This document shows positions 6,778 through 43,406 of a DNA stretch of 64,000 nucleotides, piece by piece. The position numbers and the translations under genes were made by a program. Position 1 is the stretch's first letter, and every line of letters starts with the position of its first letter. This stretch comes from Octopus vulgaris (Eukaryota), in NCBI GenBank assembly GCA_951406725.2, contig OX597828.1, positions 2,108,001-2,172,000 on the forward strand. The letters run 5' to 3'. The notes below the pieces were generated by a model. It ran no database searches. It was not told where the DNA came from and saw only the letters and a program-made list of their open reading frames with translations.

Positions 6778-9095
6778 TAGTCTTATTTTTATCACGTGCT
6801 TTCACTTCACTATTGAGCGCAGTTTTGTGTTCCTTGGACATGTGTTGTGGTTTGGACATGTGTTGTGGTGCTCTTATTTTCACTTTATTGAAAGTGTTTT
6901 ACGTAGGATATATGTGGTTCCTAGTAGTGCTAACTTTTATGTTATATATACTTGTAAGCCTTGATGTTTTTGTTATGTATTTGTCTGAATACTTTTTTTT
7001 TATCATACCTAATGTGCCTATTATGACAGGAATTGTTTCTGCTTTTAGGCTCCACATTCAAGTTATATCTATTTTCAAATCTTTGTAGCTTGAAAGTTTC
7101 TCCGTTTCTTTTAGAAAAAAAACATTGTCCCCTGTTGGTATTGGCCTGTTGACCTTAATTTATCTATCTGGGTGTATTGGTATATCCCAGAGTATAGTTG
7201 CTTTTTCATTTTCTTTAACTTTTTCTGGTGGGTGCCTATAACATCTTTTTTTTCTGTTGTTATTCCATAGTGTTGGCATAGCTTCCAGTGTATATAGGTC
7301 CCAACTCTTTTGTGCCTGTGAATATATTCCTTCTTAGCCAGGAGTGGGCAGCCAGAGACAATATGATTTATTGTTTCTTCTACATCTCCACATATTTTTC
7401 AGTTACTTGTATTTATTTTCATTACATGTTTTTGGTGATTTTTGGTGGAATGGCTTTGATCTTGTGCTACAAATTAAACATCCTTCAGTCAGTATCTGCT
7501 TTGAATCCTGAACTTCTCAGCCATTGTTGGGATTTTGCTATGTCTACCTCTGTTCTGTTTAGTTTAACCCAATTTTGCCATGAAGGGGCTTTTCTTGCCA
7601 TCGTTTTATCATGATCTGTCGCTAGTCCAGTTTTAGTTTGGATTTCAGTTGTTTTGCAGCTTTTGTTGTTTCTTCTTCTTCTTCATAGTTATTAGGTACT
7701 GTGATTTCTTTTTGTACTTTTCAGCCTCCTTAAAGACTGAAAATAGTTTTTTGTTTTCTTCGTGTTTTGCCGCTATTTGTATTAGTTTTCCTTGCTTCTG
7801 AAGTAGGTATTTCTGTAGTCCAATAGTGGTTAATTTGTAATAGTTTTCTAGCTGTATAAGGCTTCTACCACCTTCGGTACGTTGTATATATATATAGCCT
7901 TTCTATGTCATTCTAAATCCTGTAATTATTTTTCTTGTTTTCCTGTCTATTTTGATTAGTTCATTTAGAGTCCAGTTAAGAATATTGTAGCTGTAATGTA
8001 TAACTGGGACGGCTTGAGTGTTGATACCTATTATCTTGTTTTTCGCATTGAGCTCTGTTTTTAGTATTAATCTAACTCGTCTATAGTATTACTTTTTTTA
8101 TCTTCTCTTTCATTTGTTTATCTAGAGTGTCTTTCATTTGTGTATCATTTGTATATCATATCGAGCTCATTGATTCCTAACTATATGTACATCTGGCTTT
8201 CGCCTAATTCTCTTATTTCATTTGCTTAATCTAGTGCGATGTTGGTACTCTTAACTAGTTTTCTTCTTTTAAGAGTTACTTTGGCACATTTTTCTGAGCC
8301 AAATTTGACGTTTATTTCTTTGGTAAATCCATGCACTGTCTGTAGTAACGTTTCTAGCTGTTTATCACTTGTAGCGTACAGCTTTAGATCATCCATATAT
8401 AAGAGATATATCGCTGATTGTTTTGTCGTAACAGTTGAAACCACATCCAGTTCTGTTTAGCATGTCAGATAAAGGTGTCAGTGCCAAGCAGAAAAGTAGT
8501 GAAGAGAGCGTGTCTTCCTGGAATATTACTCTTCTAATGGAGATGGCTTTGGTGTTTATGAGTTCCTCTTTTGTCGGGAGCTGTAGCACTGCCTGCCATT
8601 TATTCATGGGATGTTTTATATATATTTTGTGATTATTGGTACTGCCTTGTTCATGACTAGTGTTTCCAGGATCAATGTGTGGGGAAACTATCAAAAGCCT
8701 TTCGGTAATCGATCCTGGCCATACTTAGATCCTACTTCTTCCTGCGGCTGTCTTCAGTTATGGCTTTATTGATCGATAGCTGATCTTTACAGCCGTACGA
8801 GCCCTTGCTGCATCCCTTTTGCTCTTCTGGAAACAGGTTGTTTTCTTCTAGATGTTTGCCCATTCTCTACGATATTATTGCAGTAAAGGCTTTGTAAATT
8901 ATAGAGAGACAAGTTATCGGTCTGTAATTTTGGGAGTTTGCCATTCATGCATTGTCTCTGGCTCTGTTTGTATTTCATTAAATTTCTCAGCCAGCTTTTT
9001 ATGTGTTCCTGTTAGGTATTTTAAGCCTGCGAAGAATTCTTGTAGTTCGAAGTAATGCTGATTTTTGTAGGTGATCTACCTACACACTTGCACCG
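6775..9095 (-). mobile_element. R4/Dong-clade non-LTR retrotransposon (RT + RLE), decayed and 5'-truncated
   Basis: RT motifs [33 protein letters not shown] and LLYMDDLKLYA...KFGSEKC. RLE-proximal LWDIPIHPDR.IKVNRP near 7140-7195. The 3' end runs into (TAA)n. Confidence 0.9.
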
Positions 9096-41248: not shown

Positions 41249-42342
41249 TATTTATATACATAAACATATATATGCATGTATATATGAATGCTTATATGCA
41301 TATACATATAAGTGTGTGTAAATGTATGTTTGTATAACAATAACAAAGTGAAATATAGCCAAAATATTTCAAGCCTTTGACAAACAAGTTGGTTACAAGC
41401 TTCATTCACCGCTAAACTAAATGATGCTAATTCAGAATTACTAAACCGAAGATATTATCTGAACTGAAGAATTGCAGAACTAGTATAGCTATTCCCATTT
41501 ATTTTTACGTTTCATTTGTAGTAAATTTTCCGAATTCTAAAAATATTATTTATCTGGGGATATTTTAAACCTATTACTTGTCATACATATCCAAATTCTC
41601 CATATTGAACAAATAATCTTCCCTAGCCACTGGCTGTCATTTTGCTCTGACTCTTCCTAAAATTTTATTGAGTGTGCAATTACAGATCGAAAAGCATATA
41701 GAATGCCTGAAATATAGAAATTTGAATATAGTTTTTCATGTTGAGAGAGTAGTATAGACATGTTGCTTTGATATTTATCGGACAAGTCGTTATTTCCCTA
41801 AAAACTTGTTTTGACCGGTAAATATACAGCCAAATAAACCAACACCATAAGTCGGTATTCTATGTGAGCCTTCCCATGTTATATAATATACATCCGCGTG
41901 CATATGTATATTTTGATATTTGCGCACACATACACACTTGTATGTATATATAATCTATGCATGTATATATACATGCAGATGTCAAATAAATTATTGTCAC
42001 AAGACTAACACAGTTTCCTTTGTAAAAGAATATCTACGAAAATAGTAGGATGGTCAACGTTTCTGATTTGTATTTCTTTGTAGTCAGATAGAGTTTGGTT
42101 GCGAAGGAGTGGTTCAACAAAATTCTAGGCTTTGCAGTTAATGCAAGGAAGGAAGGCATCGAAACTGGTCGAGGGCAAAGAAAGAAGAGAGAGGATGCTT
42201 GAAATCACTCAGTGAATGTTTTTCACTCGCGGCTATTTTTCTCTCAGGACAGGAGGATGATTAGATATCAGTAGAATTTAAATCATAATGAAGAAATATA
42301 CTTACTTATATGGAGACATATAAATATGTTTAGTTTAAATTC

Positions 42343-42499
42343 TTATTTACATTATTTACATTTGACGAATATTTGTCCTCACAACGTTTCGGCTGATATA
42401 CACTCCAGCCCTCATCAGGTGTCTTGGGGAAATTTCGAACCTGGGTTCAAATTCCCAAGGTATTTTTCGATGTTATTATTGCTATTACTATTATTATTA

Positions 42500-42583
<84 letters not shown>

Positions 42584-42631
42584 TTACTTGGGGTTAGTAG
42601 TCCGTGCTCTTAACCACTACGTCATATGCCC
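42343..42631 (-). mobile_element. tRNA-head/(AAT)n/hammerhead-tail SINE-like element, left copy
   Basis: Minus strand: gggcatatgacgTAGTGGTTAAgagcacggactactaacccaag (A box, B box deleted), then (AAT)n, then gaacccaggttcgaaatttccccaagacac-CTGATGA...GAAACGTT, ending gtcaaatgtaaataatgtaaataa. Inverted homolog of 43047-43406. Confidence 0.85.
42380..42423 (-). ncRNA. minimal type-I hammerhead ribozyme
   Basis: gacac-CTGATGA-g-ggctg-gagtgtatat-cagcc-GAAA-CG-TT-gtg. Confidence 0.75.
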
Positions 42632-42640
42632 GTGGGCAAT

Positions 42641-43050
42641 TCCACCGGCGACGCTGCCGCTCGCTCACGAACGCGACGGGCGGACGGAGAACGCCGAGCT
42701 AAGGCATGCGCCTTGAGGTTGAGACGCTTTTGGAGAACAACTCGGGTCCGGCGACGGTTCCGGCTTAGAGGCGTTCAGCTGTTATCGCTCAGAAGCAGCC
42801 TAGCACCACCGCTCTATCGAGCGAGCGCGCAAACCGTTGCTCTGATCCTGCGGTTCCTCTCATACTGGACGGGATAGCCATAGCCGAGTTGACGTTGCCG
42901 GCGCCCGCCTAAGATCGGCAGAAACGTCGGCGGCGGCGACGGATAACGCGCGAGTGCGCCGATGCCACCGCACACCGAACCCCCTACGCGACTCGGGGCA
43001 CCGCGTATGCTCGATGCATCGGTGGGATAAAACTAACCTGTCTCACGACG
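42641..43050 (-). pseudogene. 28S: retro-captured 28S (LSU) rRNA 3'-region fragment including the sarcin-ricin loop
   Basis: Minus strand carries the universal LSU blocks CGTCGTGAGACAGGTTAGTTTTA (from 43050), AGTAtGAGAGGAACCGCAGG (SRL, 42866-42847) and CTGAACGCCTCTAAG (42780-42766) in correct order. The segment is strongly GC-rich against an AT-rich background. Confidence 0.92.
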
Positions 43051-43143
43051 TAGTGGTTAAGTGCGCGGGTTACTAACCCCAAGATTCTGAGTTCGATTCC
43101 AGGCAGTGACCTGAATAATAATAATGATAATAATAATAATAAC

Positions 43144-43240
<97 letters not shown>

Positions 43241-43406
43241 GGAATGAGAACCCAGGTTCGAAATTTCCCCAAGATACCTGATGAAGGCTGGATGGTATAT
43301 CAGCCGAAACGTTGTGTTACCAACAAACAAGATGAGGACAAATACCCGTCAAATGTAAATAATGTAAATAATGTACGTAATTCCTCATCTCTTAAATATA
43401 GAACTG
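43047..43406 (+). mobile_element. tRNA-head/(AAT)n/hammerhead-tail SINE-like element, right copy
   Basis: A box TAGTGGTTAAG (43051), B box GAGTTCGATTCC (43089-43100), (AAT)n about 43114-43240, hammerhead 43273-43318, then tail. Confidence 0.88.
43273..43318 (+). ncRNA. minimal type-I hammerhead ribozyme
   Basis: gatac-CTGATGA-a-ggctg-gatggtatat-cagcc-GAAA-CG-TT-gtgtt. 5-bp stem II; ACGT palindrome for a dimeric stem III. Confidence 0.78.

Follow-up and report, generated by a model that had tools for sequence, protein, structure and literature searches.

A tRNA-Arg-derived head in the pLTR of an autonomous Penelope-like element of Octopus vulgaris, and its possible transcription by RNA polymerase III

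A repeat unit of Octopus vulgaris that looks like a SINE with a hammerhead near its end is almost certainly the pLTR of an autonomous Penelope-like element (PLE). The unit consists of a tRNA-Arg-like head, an (AAT)n stretch, a minimal hammerhead and a 'tail', and two copies are found in the window, i.e. the whole 64,000-nucleotide stretch of DNA analysed here. An initial annotation took the unit for a SINE of a non-autonomous family with a borrowed PLE end, which would share only its 3′ tail with an autonomous partner. This has to be given up, as the head belongs to the autonomous element's own pLTR and the whole unit is part of that PLE. With moderate confidence it is also proposed that RNA polymerase III (Pol III) makes the RNA of the PLE, and that the element's internal priming leaves SINE-like copies that are dead ends.

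The PLE is ~2.7 kb in length and has an open reading frame (ORF) of ~835 codons, with a reverse transcriptase (RT) and a GIY-YIG-type C-terminus. The head follows the ORF stop after ~20 nt; next come (AAT)n, the ATG, the hammerhead and the tail, and then the remainder of the ORF. Coding-like sequence lies directly upstream of the head at L029, L015, L004 and L027, all among the first 30 genomic relatives. A same-strand head is present directly 3′ of the ORF end at 13 of 20 loci, and 5′ of the ORF start at six of 30 loci selected by the N-terminus (L214, L220, L222, L229, L234 and L236). The tgtaaataa repeats, at first read as a SINE tail, continue into the ORF N-terminus in full-length copies and are PLE coding sequence; 18 of 42 residues of the tail peptide are identical to the N-terminus of the full-length homolog P0009. 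The tail is thus the N-terminus of a PLE ORF and not a LINE end, and the link to PLEs made by the initial annotation holds, as does the existence of an autonomous PLE with the window unit in its pLTR.

The RT domain of this element matches PF00078 (E 1.4e-10). The PLE majority sequence is without a stop for 656 and 178 codons in two segments, and one locus, L251, has 569 aa open across the segment seam, through RT and endonuclease. The L251 protein is 55% identical to P0009 and 36.6% identical to the anole protein P0087 over 569 aa (E 4.5e-108). There are 372 PLE protein homologs; the 120 listed carry PLE-type Pfam sets, including PF00078+PF28514+PF26215, and anole P0087 stands at 44% among the homologs listed. 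At the C-terminus, the alignment with the anole protein reaches residue 803 and includes a corresponding GIY-YIG motif, and the homolog P0025 carries PF01541; the PLE's own fragments give no Pfam GIY-YIG match, and no solved structure is matched by sequence. Similarity together with the ORF/hammerhead layout would suit a placement in the Penelope/Poseidon clade.

Anole P0087 fits the description of PAc (Poseidon_Ac) of the Penelope/Poseidon clade from Anolis carolinensis, and is presumably the same element. In the available part of PMC11167929, PAc resembles the octopus PLE in having a single ORF of ~835 aa with RT plus, at its C-terminus, a GIY-YIG-type domain, two internal 3′ termini and an optional tail of 30–40 nt. 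In both elements the ORF starts at the hammerhead, and therefore the cut falls inside the ORF. Reverse transcription of PAc starts at two nearby internal sites, both strands are extended, and the first 172 nt of the ORF are needed (PMC11167929, as excerpted). No tRNA segment or Pol III promoter is described for PAc in the text available, whereas the octopus pLTR opens with a tRNA-Arg head and (AAT)n and the unit is free of T4 runs.

A truncated PLE copy (L064–L066 and L080, G000:C31) lies inside a larger unit that is duplicated many times on C31, with 93–98% identity over up to 7 kb. The (AAT)n stretches are often broken by insertions of other repeats (L063 at 6960–7500, L161, L162 and L013).

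In the window, copy A (+ strand, 43047–43406) and copy B (− strand, 42637–42343) form a head-to-head pair. The copy A head (43047–43113) is 5′-truncated inside the A box; an A-box remnant remains at 43047–43056, and the B box is at 43090–43100. The (AAT)n spacer that follows (43114–43240, 42.3 units) is the 5′ leader of the PLE ORF. The first 54 ORF codons, with the ATG at 43244, occupy 43244–43406 and hold the hammerhead and the 'tail'. The end at 43406 is a long terminus common to the PLE family, at which full-length copies continue into the ORF.

Copy B has a 6-nt leader from 42637, with tRNA position 1 at 42631; its head (42580–42637, −) has a full A box, and the B box is deleted by a 23-nt gap. 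The 35.7 AAT units (42473–42579, −) are followed by the hammerhead and short arm (42343–42472, −), which ends in tgtaaataa repeats and lacks 18 nt directly 3′ of the hammerhead cut site. Thus the description of two copies with head, hammerhead and about 40 AAT units was correct, and so were the predicted cut and the end of copy A. The assignment of both Pol III boxes to both copies was partly so: the A box is complete in B, which has no B box, and A begins inside its A box. No target site duplication (TSD) adjoins the insertion; a 10-nt repeat at 42338/43449 was rejected as a TSD, being 40 nt away from the end. ARAGORN, and Rfam at the gathering threshold, gave no matches in the window.

The unit is highly repeated. 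A tail 22-mer has 11,131 exact matches in the genome and a head 22-mer 1,987, with none for the reversed controls. ORF-selected copies retain the exact 22-mers in 28 of 92 cases (tail) and 10 of 56 (head), and genome-wide arms are estimated at roughly 37,000 (tail) and 11,000 (head). Mean divergence is 5.8% (182 arms). The first 70 of the 1,987 head-bearing copies, taken in genome order, all lie on C1. A tail is linked to 59 of them, which bears out the expected head–tail linkage; 50 have an inverted partner and 17 have the ORF upstream.

The termini of the copies are strikingly regular. Upstream of the head 22-mer, the match to the element extends ≤8 nt in 55 of the 70 copies, 9–24 nt in none and at least 25 nt in 15; this 5′ wall sits at the tRNA start plus the 6-nt leader, and a short palindrome is located there. 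From 30 tail-anchored matches, scored by eye and including some that are two arms of one insertion, none reached the ORF and nine stopped at the wall. The 3′ ends form two groups, and inverted pairs combine one long and one short end in 46 of 52 cases (P 4e-9). Non-majority bases are common to the arms of a pair at 36/3690 vs 578/268488 for random pairs (4.5x). A strict fold-back model, in which the long arm is always primary, was rejected because the full head can occur on either arm.

Arms that are mostly head-to-head, one long and one short, are a known PLE signature. PLEs are known to have inverted pLTRs and palindromic junctions, with a tail on one side and captured host sequence (PMC3846280 and PMC8557442, both as excerpted), and hammerhead pairs on opposite strands, 100–700 bp apart, are noted in the accessible part of PMC4209133. 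The resemblance to the Penelope elements of Adineta vaga and Drosophila virilis includes inverted pLTRs, a junction palindrome, a tail on one arm only, first ORF codons within the pLTR, host sequence captured between pLTRs and microhomology joins (PMC3846280 and PMC2377424, in the portions available).

The head is where the octopus element departs from these relatives. Compared with 26 different tRNA sequences of G000, it scores highest against tRNA-Arg(ACG), at 71 (shuffles 19±6). The gene used in this comparison was found with a pattern shaped for it; the second and third best matches, from an unbiased Rfam search, are also Arg isoacceptors. The A and B boxes are kept in the family head and the acceptor pairing is lost. 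The initial view of a tRNA-derived head with Pol III boxes is therefore well founded. At G000:C2:211.887–211.907 Mb, more than 20 tRNA-Arg(ACG) genes stand in tandem at a spacing of ~206 bp to 1 kb. A two-codon uORF (ATG-codon-TAG) occupies tRNA positions 7–15 (window 42625–42617, −), and overlaps the A box; no other AUG precedes the main start codon of the majority sequence.

The second signature is the scarcity of runs of four or more T (T4+). The sense strand of the 2.65-kb majority sequence has none, vs 2.9 expected by codon permutation (P 0.024) or 4.5 with the third base redrawn (P 0.006). Taken by themselves, these statistics are modest; G4 runs are likewise zero vs 1.1–2.0 expected. 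In 30 decayed copies there are 19 T4+ runs vs 92 expected, and in other PLE loci (73 of 80, those ≥1 kb) 482 vs 339. The observed/expected ratio is 0.21 for the tRNA-headed PLE vs 1.42 for these controls, about a 7-fold depletion. If T4 runs occurred as often as in the 44 controls with T ≤0.24, the probability of finding none would be 0.0007. Four of the 73 controls (L322, L351, L336 and L364) are equally T4-poor, and L305 has one run in 2.3 kb. No A/B-box pair or similarity to the head was found near the control PLE loci, many of whose contigs end before the pLTR. A second PLE family that could serve as a control was not found in G000, where all 30 loci belong to the tRNA-headed family and a further search gave for the most part the same positions. 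No A/B boxes were seen near the T4-poor loci L336, L364, L305 and L322.

With a tRNA piece, and a whole element without Pol III-terminating T runs, transcription by Pol III is therefore likely; that Pol III makes the full-length PLE RNA is, from these sequence features, somewhat favoured. In two RNA-seq runs (13,076 and 9,987 aligned reads) the reads are equal on both strands, 71–75% run into unlike sequence and depth tracks copy number. Neither run has a pile-up of read ends at the head or the cut site, a weak result that would fit passive transcription or unstranded libraries.

Pol II could also transcribe the same PLE, either by read-through or from a TATA-like element that overlaps the stop codon. 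In that case the tRNA piece would be carried along as a passenger, and the 5′ wall would mark either a Pol II start or the point where a palindrome folds back. A candidate element does exist, as TTTATAA is present at −30 to −24 from the leader G and is well kept in about 70 ORF-linked copies. Such an arrangement would agree with known PLE promoters, which are TATA/Inr-like or LINE-like (PMC3846280 and PMC2377424, as excerpted; D. virilis Penelope has a LINE-like internal promoter, PMC2377424), and with the palindromic junctions general in PLEs, also without a tRNA head (PMC3846280). The A. vaga and D. virilis elements differ from the octopus PLE in their low copy number and the lack of a tRNA piece, and the word 'tRNA' is absent from the available text of PMC3846280. 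The T4-poor control loci would also fit Pol II. On the other side, the TATA-like bases double as the last ORF codons and stop, the A and B boxes survive whereas the tRNA stems do not, and T4 is depleted relative to the controls as a group. In addition, upstream AT-rich elements also serve Pol III genes. Transcription by Pol II is regarded as rather unlikely.

If Pol III is the polymerase, the copies might arise as follows. In a tandem master, Pol III would start slightly upstream of tRNA position 1 and continue across the T4-free unit into the one that follows. The RT/GIY-YIG protein would prime internally, about 120–165 nt into the ORF; internal priming has been shown in vitro for PAc (PMC11167929, in the part available). 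Priming near the RNA 5′ end, with run-off at the start site, would yield copies with head, AAT, hammerhead and tail, and priming in the downstream unit would yield ORF-bearing, 5′-truncated copies. Both target strands would be primed, one per terminus, and joining of the cDNAs by microhomology would give head-to-head pairs. Without the upstream TATA-like element and the part of the ORF past the priming site, solo copies would be dead ends. The short copies are probably run-off products; no bases distinguish them from ORF-linked copies, which a common origin of both in a small number of masters would predict. The wall and the one-long-one-short rule support the PAc internal-priming model in vivo, and provide a large natural data set for the PLE integration mechanism.

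A different origin of the short copies would be a true PLE-dependent SINE, in which short Pol III RNAs of solo or 3′ pLTRs are mobilised in trans beside the autonomous element. The unit has promoter boxes, without a terminator, and 53 of the 70 head-bearing copies have no ORF upstream. Schistosoma alpha repeats offer a precedent for Pol III with a hammerhead (PMC6765202, as excerpted), and a variant at core position 7 tends to be more frequent among the short copies (27/74 vs 24/103, P 0.065). Against this, no diagnostic base remains after correction (smallest P 0.006, 243 sites); the comparison covered 86 vs 145 arms for the tail and 75 vs 97 for the head, samples that are small against ~37,000. 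Divergence is star-like, and the inverted-pair structure is identical to that of ORF-bearing copies. With no base that separates short from ORF-linked copies, and with little in common between random pairs, these samples give no sign of an independent SINE lineage. Also, short copies stop at the priming site and therefore lack the downstream ORF stretch that, by analogy with PAc, would be needed. An independent SINE appears improbable.

The hammerhead of copy A is a minimal type I form at 43273–43318 (+). Stem I is formed by 43273–43277 and 43314–43318, the core CTGATGA is at 43278–43284, an unpaired A at 43285 precedes stem II (43286–43290/43301–43305), and GAAACGTT at 43306–43313 is followed by the predicted cut, a layout as in PMC4209133 (part available). 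The window has two cores, 43278–43313 (+) and 42418–42383 (−, copy B), vs 0.23 expected for the core pattern; three of 100 shuffles reach two. The designation as a PLE-type minimal hammerhead is justified, since the identical layout, with different stem II pairs, is found in 16 distinct hammerheads from other PLE loci. The core of the majority sequence is intact, and the unpaired base before stem II and the 5-bp stem I are typical of PLE minimal ribozymes. Rfam has no match to the window hammerhead, even at E 5.

The constancy of stem II beside a variable loop in the two copies had been taken as a sign of structural constraint. Non-CpG mismatch, measured over up to 231 arms, amounts to 0.056/0.063 for stem II, against 0.061 for the loop and 0.048–0.054 for the flanks, and the core is intact in only 44 of 172 arms. 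Stem II has thus been conserved no better than its surroundings, and intact cores are in the minority, so that the argument from two copies fails. Most core variation that segregates is at position 7, a free one (126 T, 47 A). This fits constraint in the source elements, although at the protein level it also exchanges Asp and Glu, a conservative change in the ORF. The MFE fold of 43241–43345 does not have the ribozyme shape (z −1.3) and that of the dimer is without a palindromic stem III, but these two folds say little about the ribozyme; the monomer folds into stems I and II only. Cleavage, which would fall inside the ORF, is predicted for the dimer or with the help of protein only, and the hammerhead need not act in transposition.

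A retrozyme-like cycle, in which hammerhead cleavage gives circular monomers that undergo rolling-circle reverse transcription, is very improbable. Animal non-LTR retrozymes do derive from PLE pLTRs (PMC7761336 and bioRxiv 10.64898/2026.07.22.740005, both as excerpted), and similar tandem arrays exist in the octopus: L024 (G000:C30 ~17.29 Mb), with six units seen, consists of hammerhead and tail units of 188–197 nt without the tRNA head, and is a retrozyme-like pLTR derivative, as are L025 and L149. Yet few loci are arrays (two of the first 30, L024 and L025), whereas octopus copies are mostly inverted pairs, the window copies among them, and copy ends do not fall at the cut site. The RNA-seq reads, with no pile-up of ends at the cut, argue weakly in the same direction. 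The available main text of the preprint contains neither 'tRNA' nor 'Pol III'.

To our knowledge, a retrotransposon that is autonomous is taken to depend on Pol II or, in the case of R2, on read-through by Pol I. Use of Pol III by a protein-coding PLE would be unusual for such elements. Small-RNA-derived Pol III boxes are present in the terminal repeats of the TRIMp3 retrotransposons Cassandra, Helenus and Ajax, but these are non-autonomous LTR elements of at most 1.3 kb whose autonomous partners must use Pol II (PMC10886601, as excerpted), whereas the octopus repeat belongs to an autonomous coding PLE. Pol III mobile elements are reported there at 100–1263 nt; a Pol III mRNA of 2.7–3.3 kb would exceed these lengths and would be uncapped. 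In Schistosoma, the short repeats Sm-alpha and Sj-alpha, which are dispersed or in tandem, also carry a hammerhead behind a Pol III-type promoter, but the hammerhead is canonical and no linked ORF is described in the accessible text (PMC6765202); that of the octopus is minimal and lies inside a PLE ORF. It is about an even chance that the octopus PLE is an autonomous coding retrotransposon that switched to Pol III as a whole, with a tRNA-Arg promoter, a 2.7-kb terminator-free RNA, capless translation from an (AAU)n leader and tens of thousands of internally primed pseudo-SINEs.

The octopus SINEs OK, OR1 and OR2 were reportedly described by Ohshima and Okada in 1994, OR1 and OR2 being said to originate from tRNA-Arg. 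These also have a tRNA-derived head, possibly from the same tRNA-Arg source. OR1 and OR2 are cited as CORE-SINEs (PMC4824008 and PMC4758252, in the excerpts available), whereas the head of the octopus PLE runs straight into (AAT)n and leaves no room for the ~60-bp central domain. A survey of octopus repeats counts 190 PLE and many unclassified SINE families, with structures undescribed in the part available (PMC13282606). Full-text searches of the literature turned up neither a pLTR derived from a tRNA nor a PLE transcribed by Pol III, and repeat libraries may name the family. The ~37,000 arms would likely be filed as SINEs by automated pipelines, which would inflate SINE counts. If the proposal is true, SINE-like repeats arise from inside a PLE and a natural Pol III mRNA exists; with a T4-free coding unit that opens with tRNA boxes, the question of a Pol III transposon mRNA becomes directly testable.

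Between the two window copies lies a 416-nt internal piece of 28S rRNA (42635–43050, sense on the − strand; Rfam LSU_rRNA_eukarya, E 1.4e-21). It is identical to the rDNA array on C20 in 388 of 430 columns (~10% diverged). The joint with copy B has seven shared bases (42641–42635) and that with copy A four (43050–43047). It is likely that one cDNA of the pair switched onto 28S rRNA and then joined the other by microhomology; in the proposed mechanism, this jump would come first. The rRNA piece is thus a sign of PLE template switching onto cellular RNA. Recurrent capture of rRNA was considered and rejected, as none of 19 other dispersed 28S pieces has a pLTR of this family within 3 kb. The rDNA array at G000:C20 ~23.95–24.06 Mb has a period of ~18.4 kb, and many of the dispersed rDNA fragments (19 loci, L285–L303) include spacer repeats, i.e. 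are copies made at the DNA level.
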